Origin: an uncultured Clostridia bacterium
Lineage (GTDB): Bacteria; Bacillota; Clostridia; TANB77; CAG-508
DNA length: 64,000 bases
Direction: 5' to 3'
Assembly (NCBI GenBank): GCA_949538735.1
Contig: CATGLK010000002.1
Span: 46,145-110,144 of the forward strand
Shown: positions 3,901 to 28,961 of the stretch, one piece after another
Layout of the letters: each line of letters opens with the position of its first letter
Position numbering within the stretch: position 1 is the stretch's first letter
The notes under the pieces: generated by a model
Database searches by the model: none
Told to the model about the DNA's origin: nothing
What the model saw: the letters and a program-made list of their open reading frames with translations, nothing else
Translations under genes and position numbers: made by a program

Positions 3901-4005
3901 TTGGGTGTTTTTGGGGACAGTCCTTAAAAACACCCAATTTTTATTATTCCTAATGGCTAATTTTATTAAAAAGGTGTTTTTTAGGTCTGTCCCCAAAAAC
4001 ACCTT
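3901..4005. repeat. pair of inverted GGGGACAG-core hairpin repeats (GGTGTTTTTGGGGACAGTCC..AAAAACACC), opposite orientations, forming a bidirectional terminator-like structure
   Basis: 3901-3936 and the reverse-complement copy at 3971-4005. Stems GGTGTTTTT/AAAAACACC with GGGGACAG(T/A)CC in the centre. Confidence 0.7.
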
Positions 4006-4375: not shown

Positions 4376-4771
4376 ATGGAAGAGATAGAAAAAGATTTGC
4401 AAATCATAATAAACATATTGAAAGATGAAACAAGCTGTACAGACATAGTGATTTTTGGAAGTTTTGCATTAGGAACACAAAATTCAGAAAGTGACATAGA
4501 TATAGCAATAAGAACAGATAAAGAAATTACCAAAAAAGATATTTTTGAGTTGTCAAATAAATTGTCTGATATCTTAAAAAGAGATATAGATTTAGTGGAT
4601 TTAAAACAAATACAAGATGGTTTCAGATACGAAATTTTAATAAATGGAGAGACAATTTATACAAAAGATGCAATAAATTTTGAATACTACAAGTTAGATA
4701 TGTATAGAGAATATTTGGAGTTAAATGAAAGTAGGCAAGATATAATAAAAAAAATGAAAGAAGGTAAGTAA
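4376..4771 (+). CDS. MNT-type nucleotidyltransferase (antitoxin of HepT/MNT pair)
   Basis: GSFALG...SDIDIAI minimal nucleotidyltransferase motif; immediately followed by a HEPN partner. Confidence 0.75.
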   Translation: MEEIEKDLQIIINILKDETSCTDIVIFGSFALGTQNSESDIDIAIRTDKEITKKDIFELSNKLSDILKRDIDLVDLKQIQDGFRYEILINGETIYTKDAINFEYYKLDMYREYLELNESRQDIIKKMKEGK

Positions 4772-4774
4772 TAA

Positions 4775-5188
4775 ATGGAAAATGAAGCAGTTCTAATTAA
4801 TAAGTTCGAGAGTATCGAAAAGTGTATTAAAAGAATAAATGAAGAATATGAAAACGAACCTCAAAATTTAGAAGATTATAGAAGGCTAGATGCAATTGTG
4901 TTAAACTTGCAAAGAGCGTGTGAATTAGTAACAGATATGGCGATGTATATCGTCTCACACAGAAAATTAGGAGTACCACAAACAAAAAAAGAGGCTTTTA
5001 TAAAATTAGAAGAAAATAGATTAATAGACAACAAGATGAGTGTAAATATGCAGAAAATGATAGGATTTAGAAATATAGCAATACATGATTATAAACAAAT
5101 TGATGAAAAGATATTACAAGATGTTATAGAAAATCATTTAGTTGATTTAACTGATTTTGCAAGGGCAATATTAAATTTAAAAAGATAG
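4775..5188 (+). CDS. HepT/DUF86 HEPN-domain toxin
   Basis: RNIAIHDY (Rx4-6H HEPN motif); 3-nt gap after the MNT gene. Confidence 0.75.
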   Translation: MENEAVLINKFESIEKCIKRINEEYENEPQNLEDYRRLDAIVLNLQRACELVTDMAMYIVSHRKLGVPQTKKEAFIKLEENRLIDNKMSVNMQKMIGFRNIAIHDYKQIDEKILQDVIENHLVDLTDFARAILNLKR

Positions 5189-5860: not shown

Positions 5861-7144
5861 ATGAAATTATCACAAACAGGAATGGGAACAATAAAATTAA
5901 ACAATATAGACGAAATGTACCCAGGACAAAGTATATTATTACAAACAGGACAATTAGTACAATATGGAGCAGGGCTATTTGCATATAATACAGTGCCATT
6001 ATTAGTAAGAAGAAAAATAGAGCAAATAATTGTAGAGACATTAAACAAATATGGATGTATAGAAGTGTTACTTCCAACATTACAACCTGATACAATATGG
6101 AAAAATTCTGGAAGATATGACCATTATATAAATGACGGAACAATGCTAATTACAGAGAGCAACAAAGGAACATTTTGTTTAGCTCCAACAGGTGAAGAGG
6201 CAATGTTAGAATTTGCAAGAGAAAAATTAAAATCTTACAAAAACTTACCAGTAACATATTATCAAATTGGGGAAAAGGTAAGAAATGAAATAAGAACAAG
6301 GGGATATCTATTAAGAGGAAAATCTTTCCCAATGCTTGACGCATATAGCTTTGATGTTGATACAGAACAAATGGCAAAATCATATGAAAATGTAAGAGCG
6401 GCATTTTTAGAGATATTTGGAATAATAGGTATGAAAGTAATTCCAATTGTAGCTGATAATGGCGCAATGGGTGGAAAGAAATCAGAAGAATTTATGCTAA
6501 TATCAGACCAAGGTGAAGACAAGATTTTATATGATGAAACAACAGGAATAGGATTAAATACAGAAATTCTAGAAAAAGAAAATTATCAAGAATATTTAAA
6601 AGAAGAATATGGAATTGAAGATATATCTAAATTCAAAGAAATAAGAACAATGGAATTAGGACATATATTCCAATTGGGAACTAGATATTCAGAAATGATG
6701 AATGGAAAATTTACAGACAAAGACGGAAAAGAGCAACTTTATTATATGGGATGTTATGGAATAGGTGTAAGTAGAACAGTTGCAGCTTTATATGAACAAT
6801 GTTTGATAAATGACCCAAAATGGGGAGCTTGCGGATTTTCTTTACCTGAGCAAATAGCACCATATAAAGTTCAAATTGTACCAAAAATGGATAATGAAGA
6901 AAAGGTTAAATTAGCAAATGAATTATACGCAGAGCTTCAAAGCCAAGGAATTGGAGCAATATTAGATGATAGAGAAAATTTAAATATTGGTGCTAAGATT
7001 AAAGATTGCAAAGTTTTAGGAACGCCATATTTACTAGTTTTAGGGGATAAACAAGAAGGCGATAATTTTGAATTGGAGAATACTAAAACTGGTGAAAAAA
7101 TTACATTAACTAAGACTGAGTTAATCAATAAATTCAATGCTTAA
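5861..7144 (+). CDS. proS: proline--tRNA ligase (short bacterial type without editing insertion)
   Basis: Class II motif 2 FRNEIRTRGYLLRGKSF and motif 1 region. C-terminal anticodon-binding domain. 427 aa. Confidence 0.75.
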   Translation: MKLSQTGMGTIKLNNIDEMYPGQSILLQTGQLVQYGAGLFAYNTVPLLVRRKIEQIIVETLNKYGCIEVLLPTLQPDTIWKNSGRYDHYINDGTMLITESNKGTFCLAPTGEEAMLEFAREKLKSYKNLPVTYYQIGEKVRNEIRTRGYLLRGKSFPMLDAYSFDVDTEQMAKSYENVRAAFLEIFGIIGMKVIPIVADNGAMGGKKSEEFMLISDQGEDKILYDETTGIGLNTEILEKENYQEYLKEEYGIEDISKFKEIRTMELGHIFQLGTRYSEMMNGKFTDKDGKEQLYYMGCYGIGVSRTVAALYEQCLINDPKWGACGFSLPEQIAPYKVQIVPKMDNEEKVKLANELYAELQSQGIGAILDDRENLNIGAKIKDCKVLGTPYLLVLGDKQEGDNFELENTKTGEKITLTKTELINKFNA

Positions 7145-7153
7145 TTAGTAGTT

Positions 7154-7287
7154 CTGCCAAAGGTTATATATATAATTTTTACCGTTTTCCCCATTCTAAA
7201 AATTCTAACAAAAGTTTTTAACTTTTGAGAATTTTTGAACGGTCCCCACAAACCACTTAAAAAATTATATATATAACCTTTGGCAAG
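7154..7287. repeat. long nested imperfect palindrome (24-bp perfect arms CCAAAGGTTATATATATAATTTTT) containing a GGGGACCG core variant
   Basis: Arms at 7154-7180 and 7262-7287 are exact reverse complements. The interior is itself palindromic around GTTTTTAAC. Confidence 0.7.
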
Positions 7288-7315
7288 ATAATAAATAAAG
7301 AAAGGATAATAGATA

Positions 7316-19158: not shown

Positions 19159-19410
19159 ATGAGTAGAATAGAAAAATTAATAGAAAGACTAAAAGCAAAG
19201 CCAAAAGATTTAACATATGAAGAGACAGAGAAAATATTAAATAGTTTAGGTTTTTTTGAATATAATAAAGGAAGGACATCTGGATCAAGAGTAGAGTTTA
19301 AAAAGAACAATAAAAAAATACAGATACATAAACCACATCCAGGAAATATATTAAAGCCGTATCAGGTAAAAATAATACTAAATAAATTAAAAGAATTGGG
19401 GGAAATATAG
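19159..19410 (+). CDS. hicA: HicA mRNA-interferase toxin
   Basis: 83 aa. SGSRVEFKK...HKPHPGNILKPYQVKIILNKL is typical of HicA. Confidence 0.75.
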   Translation: MSRIEKLIERLKAKPKDLTYEETEKILNSLGFFEYNKGRTSGSRVEFKKNNKKIQIHKPHPGNILKPYQVKIILNKLKELGEI

Positions 19411-19752
19411 ATGAAAAATATTATGAAATATAAAGGATATTGGGCAGAAGTTAGATATAGTGATGAAGATGAATGTTTTTGTGGAGAAATAGAAGGTCTA
19501 AAAAATACATCAATATCTTTTGAAGGCACAACAGTAAAAGCGTTGAAAAAAGACTTTAAAGATGCAATTGATTATTACTTAGAAGGGTGCAAAATTAACA
19601 ATGAAGAACCAGAAAAACAATGCAAAGGTTCGTTAAATGTCAGACTAGGAGTAGAACTTCACAACAAAGCCAAAATGAAATCAATAGAAAAAAACATATC
19701 AATAAACGAGCTAATAAAAAACGCGGTAATAATGTACTTAAAAACCAATTAA
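19411..19752 (+). CDS. hicB: HicB-family antitoxin
   Basis: Adjacent to hicA. HicB-like N-terminal fold and a C-terminal RHH-like segment (ISINELIKNAVIMYL). Confidence 0.65.
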   Translation: MKNIMKYKGYWAEVRYSDEDECFCGEIEGLKNTSISFEGTTVKALKKDFKDAIDYYLEGCKINNEEPEKQCKGSLNVRLGVELHNKAKMKSIEKNISINELIKNAVIMYLKTN

Positions 19753-21060: not shown

Positions 21061-23415
21061 CTATTTTACTTCAAATTTTAATTTATCATTTTCTACTTCA
21101 ACTTCTACATTTTGACCGTCTGTAAGTTCGCCTTTTAAAATCATTTCTGCCAATTCATCTTCAATATATCTTTGAATAGCTCTTCTTAAAGGTCTTGCAC
21201 CAAACTTGATATCAGTTCCTTTTTCTAAAATGTAATCTTTAGCATTAGGAGATATATTCATTTTAATATCTTTATCTTTTAATACTTTGAAAGTATCATC
21301 TAACATTAAATTAACAATCTCTAAAAGTTGCTCACGAGTTAAAGCATCAAAGCTAATAATTTCATCTATTCTATTTAAAAATTCTGGTCTAAAAACTTCT
21401 TTTAAGCTATTCATAATTTTGTTTTTATCAACAGTTTGTTTACCAAAACCAATTGAGTTTGTATTTGTGTTAGAACCAGCATTAGATGTCATTATTATAA
21501 TTGTGTTAGAAAAGCTTACTGTATTTCCTTGGCTATCTGTCAACTTTCCGTCATCTAATACTTGTAATAAAATATTGAATACATCAGGGTGTGCCTTTTC
21601 AATTTCATCTAGTAATATTATTGAATATGGTTTTCTTTTAACTTTGTCAGTTAATTGACCAGCTTCGTCATATCCAACATATCCTGGAGGTGCACCTATC
21701 AATTTAGATGTAGAGTGACTTTCCATATATTCTGACATATCTATTCTTATAATTGAATCTTCATTTCCAAACATTTCATAAGCTAAACTTTTTGCAAGCT
21801 CTGTTTTACCAACACCAGTAGGTCCAACAAATATAAATGAAGGTGGTCTTTTTGTGCTTTTTAATCCAGCACGATTTCTTCTTATTGCCCTTGCAACACT
21901 ATTAACAGCTTCGTTTTGACCAACAATTCTTTTATGTAGGTTTGTTTCTAAATTTAATAATTTTTGTGTTTCTGCTTCTGTTATTTTTTTAACTGGAATT
22001 TTAGTCCAACTTTCAATAACATTTGCTATATCTTGAATTGTTAATTGTCTTGGTTTCATTTTGCTATTTAATTTGTCTATTTCTTCTATTAGTTGACATT
22101 CACGTGTTTTTAGATTTGCAGCTTTTTGGTAATCTTCGGTAGAATCTGCTGCAACAACTTCTTCTTTTTCATTTTGAACTTGAACTAGTTCTTGTTTTAG
22201 CATTTCTAATTTGAATAATTCTTTATTTTCTAAGTTAATTCTAGAGCAAGCTTCATCTAAAATATCAATTGCTTTGTCTGGTAAAAATCTATCGTGAATG
22301 TATTTTTCAGACATTATAACTGCTTGACGAATAACATCAGAAGATATTTTTACTTTGTGATATTCTTCGTAATATTTTTTAATTCCGTCCAAAATACCAA
22401 TAGAATCTTCAACATTTGGTTCTTCAACTAAAACTTGTTGAAATCTTCTTTCTAAAGCAGAATCTTTTTCAATATATTTTCTATATTCTTTTAAAGTTGT
22501 AGTACCAATTAATTGAATTTCTCCATTAGATAGGGCAGGTTTTAATATATTTGCAGCATTCATAGAGTGTTCGCCATCTCCTGCACCAATGATGTTGTGA
22601 ATTTCGTCAATAACTAAAATAATATTTCCAAATTCTTTACATTCATCAATTATACCTTTCATTCTTGACTCGAATTGACCTCTAAACTGAGTTCCAGCTA
22701 TAACAGCTGTCATATCTAATAAATAAACTTCTTTATTTAAAAGTTTTGCAGGCACGTTTTGGTTTGCAATTCTAATCGCTAAACCTTGTGCAATTGCAGT
22801 TTTACCAACACCTGGTTCACCAATTAGGCAAGGGTTGTTTTTAGAACGTCTATTTAAAATTTGTACTATTCTTTGAATTTCTTTTTCTCTACCAATTATC
22901 ATATCTAATTGGTTATTTTTTGCTTTTTCCGTTAAATTTGTTCCAAAAGTATCTAAGAATTTTTTCTTTTTATTTGTTTTTTTGTTTTTCTTTTTTTCAA
23001 CTTTTACTTTTTTTCTACTGTTAGAAGCTTCTTCTTGTTCGGCATTAGATTTTGGTCCAAACATATTTGAGAAGAAAGAGCCAATTGGAATTGCTGCTCC
23101 TGTTATTTTTGGGTCACCGTTTTCATCTGTGATTTCTGGATTTTCAAATGTGATTGCTCCTTCGATATTTTCTATGTCTTCTAAGTTGATGTTTTCTGCT
23201 AAATCTTTGAACATTGTTTCTAGTTGTTTGGTCATATTGCCTATATCAGGTATTTCTTTTGCCATTATGTCGTGTTGGTCTGATATTACTTCTACTGGAT
23301 TTATGCCTTTTTTTTGTGCACAGTCGGCACAGTATCCTTCCATGGATTCTTTTCCATTTTCTATTTTTTTATAAAAAAGTATTGCTGGTTTTTTATTACA
23401 TTCTGAACATAACAT
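21061..23415 (-). CDS. clpE: ATP-dependent Clp protease ATP-binding subunit ClpE (N-terminal zinc finger, two AAA+ domains)
   Basis: N-terminal CxxC..CxxC, D1 ([25 protein letters not shown]) and D2 (GPTGVGKT) domains; no ClpC-type N domain. Confidence 0.8.
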
Positions 23416-23515
23416 ACTTTAAATTCCTCATTTCTAATTAAAATATTAACTCATAGTATAATATCGCAAAATTGCGAAATAGTCAATATTTTGAGCCAAT
23501 ATTCATACAATTTCT

Positions 23516-23939
23516 GTTACTGATTAATGATTTCGAGACAGTGCGGGGAACAATGGGCAAAATTTAGCTTTTATTTTGTTCATTCCATTTGATAAGAATT
23601 TGTATGTTTATAAAAAAAGGAGCTTTCACTCAGGCTCAAGTAATTATTTTATTTTTTGAATAAATTATGAATGTGCCCTGTAATAAGTTTAGAAATTCTT
23701 TAATTATTTTATGGAAAGAGTTCGTGCTGCGACACGGAAGGGAGCCATAAAATAATTTTAGAATTTCTTTGCTTATGTAAGAAACCGAAGAATTTATGAA
23801 AAAAATAAAATAATTACTTGCCCGCGAACATTACTTTTTTTATAAACTTACATATTCTATATCTCATTCCAATCAAATCATAAAAGCTAAATTTTGCCCA
23901 TTGTTCCCCACACTGTCTCGAAATCATTAACCCAGTAAC
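23516..23939. mobile_element. MITE-like non-autonomous element: 57-bp terminal inverted repeats flanking ~310 bp of ORF-less sequence
   Basis: 23516-23572 (GTTACTGATTAATGATTTCGAGACAGTGCGGGGAACAATGGGCAAAATTTAGCTTTT) is the reverse complement of 23882-23939, with 2 mismatches. Confidence 0.6.
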
Positions 23940-24005
23940 ACAAAAATATTGATAAAATAAGTAAAAAATGTTATAATATAGAAAATTGAAAAAAGAGGAT
24001 TAATT

Positions 24006-24872
24006 ATGAATGTAAAATTACCAAATCAATTCAAAATAAGTAAAAAAAGTTTAACAATATACATAACAATAATATCAGTATGCGTAATAGCTGTAATAAT
24101 AGCATTTTACGTACAATTTTATGCAAGAATTGAAATCGCATCATTAATAGGGATAACAACAAAAGAAAGAAAATTCGGAAATAAAACAGAAGAACAAATA
24201 GAAGAAATAAAAGCAGGATTTACCGAAATCTTCAACAACAATTTAGAAAGCGAAGAAGTAGACTATACAAACAAAAAGCAAGACGCAAGTAAAGAATTAG
24301 TATATACAAAATACAATGAAAAAGAAACCAAACCAAGCAATTATGATATAAATGTACAAATTCCATACATAAACATCAGAAGTGACATAGTAAATAAATA
24401 TAATCAAGAAATAGAAGATATATTTGCAGAAACAGCAAGAAAAGTATTAGATACAGAAAACAGAAATATTATATATACAGTAGAATATGTATCAAATGTC
24501 CATGACGGAATTTTATCACTTGCAATAAAATCAAATATAAAAGAAGGTACAAATGCACAAAGAGTAATAATTCGAACATATAACTATGACTTGAGAAATA
24601 ACAAAGAAATTAGTTTAGACGAAACACTTAGAATTAAACAACTAGAAAGAAATGAAGTTAAAGACAAAATCAGAAAAGAAGTAGAACTAGAACATCAAAA
24701 AGCACAAGATTTAAAAGATTTAGGATATTCTATATATAATAGAAATCCAGGGAGCAACATATATAACATAGAGAATTCAAAAGAATATTACGTAACAAAT
24801 GATACTTTATATGTAATCTATGCTTATGGAAATGAGAACTTAACAAGTGAAATGGATTTAATAATATTTTAA
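24006..24872 (+). CDS. membrane-anchored hypothetical protein
   Basis: 288 aa with a single N-terminal TM helix. RBS AAGAGGA precedes the ATG. Confidence 0.45.
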   Translation: MNVKLPNQFKISKKSLTIYITIISVCVIAVIIAFYVQFYARIEIASLIGITTKERKFGNKTEEQIEEIKAGFTEIFNNNLESEEVDYTNKKQDASKELVYTKYNEKETKPSNYDINVQIPYINIRSDIVNKYNQEIEDIFAETARKVLDTENRNIIYTVEYVSNVHDGILSLAIKSNIKEGTNAQRVIIRTYNYDLRNNKEISLDETLRIKQLERNEVKDKIRKEVELEHQKAQDLKDLGYSIYNRNPGSNIYNIENSKEYYVTNDTLYVIYAYGNENLTSEMDLIIF

Positions 24873-27632: not shown

Positions 27633-28961
27633 ATGACAATATTAGATATAATTGAGAAAAAAAGAGACAAACAAGAATTAAGCAAGCAAGAAATTGAATA
27701 TTTTATAAAAGGATATACAGAAGGAACAATAGCAGACTATCAGGCAGCAGCACTAGTAATGGCAATATTTATAAACGGAATGACAAAAGAAGAAACAACA
27801 AACTTAACCCTAGCAATGGCAAACTCAGGAGAAATATTAGATGTTTTGGGTGTTTTTGGGGACAGACCTAAAAAGCATCCAAAAATAATTGTAGATAAAC
27901 ACTCAACAGGTGGAGTGGGTGACAAAGTATCATTAATATTGTTACCACTAGTTGCATCTTGTGGAGTGCCAGTTGCGAAGATGTCTGGACGTGGACTAGG
28001 CTTTACAGGCGGTACAGTTGACAAATTAGAATCAATCCCAGGATATAAAACAGGAATAGATATCAACAGTTTTATACAAAATGTGGAAAACATAGGAATA
28101 AGTATTATTTCACAGACCCTAAACTTAGCACCAGCAGATAAAAAAATATATGCGTTAAGAGATAGTATATCTTGTGTGGAAAGTATACCATTAATTGCAT
28201 CAAGCATAATGAGTAAAAAAATAGCAAGTGGAGCAAATAAAATAGTATTAGATGTAACAGTTGGAAGCGGAGCATTTATGAAAGACATCGAACAGGCAAG
28301 CAAACTTGCAAAAGCAATGATAGAAATAGGAGAATTAGCAAACCGTGAAACAGTATGTGTTTTAACAAATATGGATGAACCACTAGGATATGCAGTAGGA
28401 AACACATTAGAAGTAAAAGAAGCAGTAGAGGCATTAAAAGGAAATATGCCAGAAGATGTAAAACAAGTTGTGCTAGAGCTAGGAGCGCATATGATAAAAC
28501 TAGCAAAAGTAACAGACAACATCGAAAATGCAAAAGAAATATTAATTCAAAAAATAGAAAATGGAGAAGCATTCAACAAATTTGTAGAACTAGTACAAAA
28601 TCAAGGTGGAGACACATCATATATAACAAACTTAGAAAAATTTGAAAAAGCAAAATATATAGAACCTGTATATAGCGAAAAATCAGGATATATACAAAAA
28701 ATAAATGCAGAAACAATAGGCAAACTAGCATGTAGTTTGGGAGCAGGAAGAATTAGAAAAGAAGACAAAATAGATATGTCAGTTGGAATAATACTAAATA
28801 AAAAAGTAGGAAATTATGTAGAAAAAGGTGACTGCTTAGGATATATCCATACAAATAATGATAACACATTAGAAGAAGCAAAACAAACTCTATTAAAGAC
28901 AATCAAAATAGAAGAACAAGAAAAAGAACCAATTAAGACAATATTAAAAATAATTTCTTAG
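27633..28961 (+). CDS. pdp: pyrimidine-nucleoside phosphorylase
   Basis: VDKHSTGGVGDK and SGRGLGFTGGTVDKLESIPG motifs. Contains a repeat-derived segment at 27841-27876. Confidence 0.85.
   Translation: MTILDIIEKKRDKQELSKQEIEYFIKGYTEGTIADYQAAALVMAIFINGMTKEETTNLTLAMANSGEILDVLGVFGDRPKKHPKIIVDKHSTGGVGDKVSLILLPLVASCGVPVAKMSGRGLGFTGGTVDKLESIPGYKTGIDINSFIQNVENIGISIISQTLNLAPADKKIYALRDSISCVESIPLIASSIMSKKIASGANKIVLDVTVGSGAFMKDIEQASKLAKAMIEIGELANRETVCVLTNMDEPLGYAVGNTLEVKEAVEALKGNMPEDVKQVVLELGAHMIKLAKVTDNIENAKEILIQKIENGEAFNKFVELVQNQGGDTSYITNLEKFEKAKYIEPVYSEKSGYIQKINAETIGKLACSLGAGRIRKEDKIDMSVGIILNKKVGNYVEKGDCLGYIHTNNDNTLEEAKQTLLKTIKIEEQEKEPIKTILKIIS
27841..27876 (+). repeat. GGGGACAG-core hairpin repeat copy lying in-frame inside pdp
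   Basis: GGTGTTTTTGGGGACAGACCTAAAAAGCATCC closely matches the intergenic copy at 3903. It encodes an extra VLGVFGDRPKK segment just before the conserved VDKHSTGG. Confidence 0.55.

Follow-up and report, generated by a model that had tools for sequence, protein, structure and literature searches.

The spacer between a Clp/Hsp100 ATPase gene and the gene of a 288-aa protein in this uncultured Clostridia bacterium (29% GC; the species representative is the mouse-gut MAG MGBC161913) carries a palindromic insertion that is cleanly absent at the orthologous sites of close relatives. The feature is real, a new example of gene-less palindromic mobile DNA of a known kind, and is not a regulatory leader. 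At a probability of roughly 60%, we read it as a nested, non-autonomous foldback element of the MITE-like type, mobilised in trans, which inserted with a short duplication into a palindromic target and is eroding by central deletion. Unusually long, fully palindromic and without genes, it occurs in empty, full and decayed states at two loci of uncultured gut Clostridia, and it documents the entry, persistence and erosion of long DNA palindromes in a bacterial chromosome. What is unusual about it is a two-layer pattern of conservation, and this is the part worth pursuing.

A palindromic insertion between two divergent promoters

The preliminary description had noted 57-bp inverted ends, matching at 55 of 57 positions, on either side of an interior with a GC-rich patch and no ORF. 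We obtained the same count with GTTACTG (23516) and CAGTAAC (23939) as the outermost bases, the right arm being one base longer, and an inverted-repeat search returned near-complementary 51-nt arms (23524-23574 vs 23880-23930, 98%). A 40-mer from the arm has only two sites in the 64-kb window (the whole stretch of 64,000 nucleotides analysed here), both of them the arms themselves, where 0 are expected from shuffles. The GC-rich patch, GCGACACGGAAGGGAGCC, was located at 23729-23746. No ORF that touches the element exceeds 37 aa, and the arm-encoded frame of that length had 0 matches among 1.84 billion protein representatives. The earlier observation is confirmed, and was understated: the palindrome spans all of 23516-23939, beyond the 57-bp ends, since the interior that had been overlooked is self-complementary too, via three further nested repeat pairs.

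Aligned to its own reverse complement, the element matches over its full length at 76.7%. Each arm is about 210 bp long; together the arms make four stem blocks, which three non-complementary internal loops separate and a 30-nt apical loop caps. Inside the terminal block, the left side of block 2 (23595-23619) pairs with 23834-23858 over 25 nt (92%), that of block 3 (23637-23666) with 23791-23820 over 30 nt (93%), and that of block 4 (23683-23714) with 23745-23776 over 32 nt (84%); the apical loop, with the GC-rich patch, occupies 23715-23744. A single long hairpin is predicted for either strand (RNA, -185 kcal/mol for the plus and -190 kcal/mol for the minus strand; DNA, -118 kcal/mol), with a z-score of about -20 and 0 of 100 shuffles equally stable. 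The GC content of the element, 29.8%, compares with 29.0% for the host.

Comparison with empty sites, together with the self-complementarity and the fold, places the whole inserted element at 23511-23939, 429 bp lying between two copies of ACAA. In the window and in contigs L001-L003, where clpE is 98.3-100% identical and the right flank 100%, the spacer is 590 bp and the element is present. Four sister lineages have spacers of 157-166 bp or are empty where they can be read: L015-L019 (94.6% identical to the window in clpE and 93.6% in the right flank; 157 bp), L039 (right flank 92.8%; empty and collinear with L015-L019, the contig beginning within clpE), L021-L030 (clpE 90.8%, right flank about 85%; 158 bp) and L031/32 (clpE 84%; 166 bp). 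The surplus of the filled sites over these empty ones is exactly 433 bp. The element is present in every strain whose flanking DNA is at least 96.7% identical, and absent at 94.6% or below with window-type synteny.

The preliminary description had suggested looking for a target-site duplication, with a TA/AT-rich flank as candidate; the junctions carry not TA but the tetranucleotide ACAA, a candidate duplication found by comparing filled and empty sites at 23507-23510 on the left and 23940-23943 on the right. The empty site reads ATATTCATA(T/C)AAAAATATTG in L039, or more fully ATATTCATATAAAAATATTG, and ATATTAACACAAAAATATTG in L018. With junctions marked by a slash, the filled site reads CATACAA/TTTCTG...GTAAC/ACAAAAATATTG, or at greater length ATATTCATACAA/TTTCTGTTACTG...CCCAGTAAC/ACAA/AAATATTG. 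The junction repeat can also be read as 3 bp (CAA), as an imperfect 7-8 bp, or as an insertion after ACAA without any duplication. IS3-type TG...CA ends were considered and rejected, since they would leave TTTC over and the bases beside them show no duplication. The insertion point is the loop of a small host palindrome read from the sequence, whose halves CAATATT (23497-23503) and AATATTG (23945-23951) are 8 nt apart in the empty sites, and it falls between the -35 boxes of two divergent promoters.

To the left, on the minus strand, 21061-23415 encodes a two-domain Clp/Hsp100 ATPase whose N-terminal segment is Cys-rich; its sequence is consistent with ClpE/ClpC, although it falls short of the NCBIfam equivalog cut-offs for ClpB and for ClpA. 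To the right, 24006-24872 encodes the 288-aa protein, with a hydrophobic N-terminal segment and no family match. Promoter-like sites for the ATPase gene (TTGACT-17-TATTAT, 23458-23486, minus strand, 10/12) and for the 288-aa gene (TTGATA-17-TG-TATAAT, 23949-23977, plus strand, 11/12) both lie outside the element and are directed away from it, and inside the element such sites are no better than in shuffles and a terminator search found none. Since both promoters are outside and directed away and relatives do without the element, it is no leader of either gene, and the segment is not conserved as a clpE leader in orthologous regions; such conservation, combined with single-copy status and no related IS, had been named as what would undo the MITE-like reading. 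For annotation, this means that the clpE upstream region is here neither a leader nor a riboswitch. Separately, a perfect 14-bp palindrome, TCGCAAAATTGCGA, sits at 23464-23477 in the -35/-10 spacer of the ATPase promoter and could be an operator; it is partly kept in the L021 lineage and is neither a CIRCE nor an obvious CtsR box.

The genes around the element are housekeeping genes. No transposase or recombinase had been seen nearby in the preliminary description, and a domain search of every ORF of 100 aa or more in the window likewise found none. Elsewhere in the window, a cluster of ORFs without family matches (33553-38315) adjoins a homologue of TraG/TraD-like coupling proteins (776 aa, 35985-38315, minus strand), the sole mobile-looking gene there, and the cluster may be the remnant of a conjugative element. 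The window also holds a glmS ribozyme (41084-41236, minus strand, 88.6 bits) upstream of a GlmS-like gene (39162-41009), a tRNA-Met gene (43406-43482, minus strand) and two toxin-antitoxin pairs, HicA/HicB and nucleotidyltransferase/HepT (19159-19752 and 4376-5188). A further long inverted repeat (7140-7300) separates the gene of a class II tRNA synthetase from that of an SRP54-type GTPase (FtsY/Ffh family); its 41-nt arms are 83% complementary with 79 nt between them, and the loop contains a GGGGACCG motif.

Related copies and a second locus

A search for additional copies had been proposed, and the outcome was divided: the window holds one copy, no others being found there with exact and mismatch-tolerant patterns or relaxed blastn, and related copies do exist at a second locus in related lineages. 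A scan of the contigs of 185,579 species genomes with a 19-mer from the ends of the inner unit (described below; GGGGAACAATGGGCAAAAT) gave 7 loci, of which only one is real, the orthologous locus in the species-representative MAG (L014). Two patterns run against metagenome contigs returned 0 matches and then 6 chance matches, six patterns against viral contigs returned nothing or chance matches only, and blastn against plasmids and phages returned nothing meaningful. Exact-word scans and BLAST of the genome, metagenome, viral, plasmid and phage collections recovered no IS with matching ends.

At the clpE locus of L014 the element is a short form of 116 extra bp, in which portions of the inner ends survive together with the outer arms. 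Through a variant of the Clp ATPase (P0121), whose clpE is 95.6% identical, we reached L051 and L052, in which the same element lies upstream of clpE in reversed orientation. The clpE-side junction in L051, ACAAAAATA/TTACTAG, differs from that of the window, and the far flank is another locus, upstream of a CmpB-like permease gene and not of the 288-aa gene (L051:2392-3000 and flanks; L052:1-230). Both the L014 short form and the L051 junction come from metagenome assemblies, in which assembly error is possible. The join in L051 would be either a rearrangement between element copies or an assembly jump through the repeat, and either way a second copy is needed in that genome.

This second locus, between the gene of an FAD-dependent enzyme and the CmpB-like gene, shows several states of the element across lineages. 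L053 carries a mini-palindrome, CTAATGGTTCGAAAAGC/TTTTTCAAATCATTAAC, the centre of which marks the exact start of homology to L051; in L054/55 a remnant of 23 nt is left. The contigs of L056/57 begin inside an element arm, in which the inner 30 nt are identical to the window at 29 of 30 positions and the outer 30 nt belong to a third type of arm, which is strongly diverged and abuts the same flank position. A more distant lineage (P0264) has another gene order at this locus and no element. The junctions here point to a duplication of perhaps 5-6 bp, as against 3-4 bp at the clpE locus. From these alignments, then, each of the two loci appears in full, truncated and empty states across lineages. 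Downstream of the CmpB-like gene, L054:5354-8651 (P0243 lineage) holds a DpnII-type restriction-modification cluster and a resolvase fragment, and L051 and L053 have an NS_2-type endonuclease gene at the position of that cluster.

In Logan and some ENA assemblies, short contigs from de Bruijn graphs consistently stop inside the element (L004-7, L033-38, L050). This flags a site at which metagenome assemblies systematically break or may mis-join, the contigs concerned including L052, L056/57 and possibly L051 as well.

The reversed interior in L051/L052 bears on an alternative named in the preliminary description, an invertible switch. In such a switch a site-specific recombinase would flip the segment and re-route transcription to either neighbour gene. 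Long inverted repeats around a segment of about 300 bp between divergent genes would suit such a switch, as would the reversal relative to clpE. However, the junction, the outer arms and the far flank of L051 differ too, so that no simple flip accounts for it, and every contig with window-type flanks that reaches the interior has it in one orientation (three full-length and 11 partial contigs, and the window itself). Flipping an interior that is itself a palindrome would alter little, no internal promoter rises above background, and no recombinase was found in the 64 kb. We regard a switch as extremely improbable.

Two layers of conservation and a variable apex

Identity between copies shifts sharply at GGGG (23545) and CCCC (23909), dividing the element into an inner unit of 365 bp (23545-23909) and a pair of outer arms. 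The inner unit has perfect 30-bp inverted ends, GGGGAACAATGGGCAAAATTTAGCTTTTAT (23545-23574 and 23880-23909), that begin GGGGAACAATGGGC. The outer left arm, GTTACTGATTAATGATTTCGAGACAGTGC (23516-23544, plus strand), is part of the older or variable layer and pairs with the outer right arm, ACACTGTCTCGAAATCATTAACCCAGTAAC (23910-23939, plus strand). Between the window and L051 the inner unit is 97-98% identical (about 97.6%) and the outer 40-60 columns at each end are 55-70% identical. More generally, the outer 30 nt or so of each arm are 45-76% identical between copies while pairing within each copy, and the outer left arm of the window is about 45-65% identical to the right arm in L056/57. The arms of L051 pair together, and relative to the window five stem pairs have changed on both sides (28:425, 32:421, 35:418, 42:414 and 63:393). 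The outer arms follow, roughly, the consensus TGTTACTGR-TTAATGRTTTSGA... and together form a palindrome of about 60 bp, TGTTACTGRTTAATGRTTT, with the inner unit exactly at its centre. In L033-37 and L014 the flanks of the inner unit read GACAGTGC/.../GCACTGTC; together they make up the centre of a perfect palindrome, with GC on either side.

A near-identical interior between diverged outer arms that still pair is not predicted by simple MITE decay. The contrast suggests that the inner unit is younger, or was more recently exchanged, than the arms around it, and three readings fit: a younger inner element homing to the centre of an older palindromic one, gene conversion that homogenises interiors and spares the edges, or a functional hairpin under selection in its interior, with an outer stem that need only pair. 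The pattern could point to palindrome-centre targeting or to a selected hairpin. We consider it fairly unlikely that the inner unit is either a new kind of mobile element that homes to exact palindrome centres or a conserved functional rod-like hairpin, of RNA or DNA, with the apical loop as its variable specificity determinant. Homing to palindrome centres, if true, would explain why the inner unit is near-identical at two loci inside outer arms that have diverged and still pair.

The apex itself is variable. Over 12,867 bp, only 5 positions separate L002 from the window, and every one falls within the apical 72 nt: 23681 in an internal loop, 23707 and 23752, which form one base pair of block 4 changed from T-A to G-C (as also in L003), and 23729-30 in the loop. 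The apex allele of L002 recurs in L003 on another left-flank haplotype, and the window-type apex occurs on that haplotype in L001; this four-gamete pattern of apex alleles against left-flank haplotypes means recombination among strains. Position 23681 and the loop positions (23728-23730) each have three alleles among four distinct full-length copies (window, L001, L002/L003 and L051). Inversion of the apex was rejected as the source of the allele differences, the orientation of the loop being unchanged. With four full-length sequences to compare, the variation may reflect conversion from another copy, mutagenesis at the hairpin tip, or selection.

These patterns are also what can be said for a functional structured hairpin, either a long rod-like RNA or a protein-bound cruciform or hairpin of DNA, with its interior under purifying selection and an outer stem that only has to pair; horizontal arrival is compatible with this. 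Such a structure would account for a 97-98% identical interior beside arms of 55-70% identity that pair through two-sided changes, and for the inner 30 nt of L056 beside flanks that are about 55-60% identical (by-eye estimate). It would account as well for arm mismatches that are grouped in discrete internal loops rather than scattered, and for five purely apical differences of which two make up one base pair. However, paired changes can come from arm-to-arm templated repair and transposon ends must co-evolve, so neither needs a structural function. The flanking promoters point away, the internal sites are at shuffle level and there is no terminator, the two strands fold equally well with no G-U bias, and the element is absent from sister lineages and tolerated in truncated form. 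Rfam 15, searched with an E-value threshold around the element and with the gathering threshold over the whole window, gave the element only sub-threshold generic hairpin matches; the best, to TwoAYGGAY, scored 33.2 bits against a gathering threshold of 43, with a generic stem aligned and the inner model positions missing, and the miRNA matches were generic hairpins below threshold. The long-stem structured RNA that the preliminary description had offered as an alternative finds little in its favour, and a functional hairpin in general seems unlikely to us.

Mobility and comparison with known systems

Whether the palindrome was made where it now stands is answered by its arms: those of one copy are only 77% alike and the flanks of filled and empty sites are near-identical, so the palindrome arrived ready-made and was not made in place. 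This weighs on the idea of a non-mobile origin, in which a one-off insertion, or a palindrome that break repair or template switching had formed on the spot, was afterwards passed between strains by homologous recombination. The junction homology is only 4 bp and could also arise by microhomology-mediated repair, no transposase was found, and the four-gamete pattern does show exchange between strains. Against this, arms of 77% likeness are not a fresh inverted duplication, no template-like sequence exists elsewhere in the window, and related sequence occurs at a second, unlinked locus and with a different junction in L051. We consider a non-mobile origin very improbable.

Under the nested foldback reading that we prefer, a transposase encoded elsewhere in the genome would have moved the composite element in trans. 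The composite lies inserted in the loop of the 7-bp host palindrome between the promoters of the ClpE/ClpC-type ATPase and the 288-aa gene, which would have set the two promoters 433 bp farther apart and created a long, unstable palindrome. The palindrome would then decay by central deletions into the short forms, and could serve as a substrate for rearrangement; a dedicated host function is probably absent. The MITE-like character proposed in the preliminary description stands as far as small size, non-coding sequence, inverted ends, filled and empty sites, ACAA at the junctions and related copies with other flanks are concerned. It falls short in that no parent IS or transposase was found in the 64-kb window or the public scans, that the window has one copy, and that the outer ends, which should be conserved in a MITE, are the least conserved part between copies.

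The window is also rich in small hairpins of one family, whose loop GGGGAC(A/G)G(N)CC is conserved; copies were seen at 3904-4003, 7237-7252, 11540-11600, 12250-12280, 39086-39159, 42068-42165 and 59570-59600. Their stems covary (GGTGTTTTT/AAAAACACC, AAAACTTTTT/AAAAAAGTTTT, TTGCCAA/TTGGCAA and GATGTTTTT/AAAAACATC), they lie mostly just downstream of genes, and they include inverted doublets (3904-4003 and 39086-39159) and a triple 36-nt tandem (42068-42165). The 16-mer of this family has 12 matches where 0.19 are expected, and GGGACNG has 15 against about 3 expected; a search of Rfam for the family gave no match. A match at 27853, inside the gene of a pyrimidine-nucleoside phosphorylase, was rejected as coding sequence (FGDR, also in relatives).

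REP sequences and REPINs, which RAYT transposases mobilise, join short palindromic units in inverted orientation into a long hairpin; REPINs measure about 60-110 nt and number tens to hundreds of copies, next to a RAYT gene. Transposases of the RAYT and IS200/IS605 types recognise hairpins and insert beside a fixed tetranucleotide without duplication. On this model the element could be a giant REPIN-like unit that a tyrosine HUH transposase (of RAYT or IS200/IS605 type) mobilises in single-stranded form, with ACAA as its insertion site. The whole element is a hairpin as single-stranded DNA and sits in the loop of a host palindrome, ACAA can equally be read as left flank plus the right end of the element, the host genome carries the small hairpin repeats in number, and one arm of L051 holds sequence resembling their unit. 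However, the 64-kb window has no Y1 transposase and no RAYT was seen in it, the arms are long true inverted repeats rather than subterminal hairpins of the same orientation, the L051 junction is not clearly beside the same tetranucleotide, and the window arms match the small repeat weakly (more than 3 mismatches in 16). We find a REPIN-like origin quite improbable.

Two further types of miniature element were rejected. PATE elements derived from IS200/IS605 have subterminal hairpins of the same orientation, no terminal inverted repeats, and insert 3′ of a fixed tetranucleotide; the element has long true inverted repeats and no local hairpins at its ends, and the tetranucleotide is not clearly common to L051. 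The Tn3-derived miniature element (TIME) has a 38-bp end that starts GGGG and ends TAAG, with a 5-bp duplication; the inner-unit ends start with GGGG but do not end in TAAG, and no repeat longer than a 2-bp GC is seen in the flanks. In eukaryotes, foldback elements and hairpins derived from MITEs are imperfect palindromes over their whole length, a likeness that is one of shape only, and the near-matches in Rfam to plant miRNA-precursor hairpins were all sub-threshold.

Autonomous IS3-family elements with a transposase gene, IS1397 and ISKpn1, target the palindrome loops of REP/BIME sequences. The element is like them in that a palindrome centre or loop appears to be targeted, the inner unit lying in the outer palindrome and the composite in the host palindrome; unlike them, it is gene-less.

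The bacterial MITEs reviewed in PMC2229807 (Correia/NEMIS, RUP, ERIC and RPE) are small, A+T-rich and non-coding, have terminal inverted repeats and a short duplication, and form a long stem-loop in transcripts or single strands through pairing of their 5′ and 3′ ends. The element has in common with them its small, A+T-rich, non-coding sequence, inverted ends, filled and empty sites and a long stem-loop (PMC2229807). At about 430 bp it is two to four times longer than the reviewed families, which are below 200 bp, and unlike them it has no TA ends, few detected copies and no known partner IS (PMC2229807). It also differs from MITE families in having ends less conserved than its interior, and two nested palindromic layers. 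We found no paper on Clostridial MITEs in the literature. The YPAL (RU-2) repeat of Yersinia is a palindromic mobile repeat with filled and empty sites, targets of dyad symmetry and a duplication of varying length; at 168 bp, not A+T-rich and multi-copy, it is unlike the element in these respects, and the likeness between the two is drawn from its description, a relation in sequence not being expected (PMC2229807). As with YPAL, the target of the element has dyad symmetry, being the loop of a 7-bp palindrome, and the length of the duplication seems to depend on the locus.
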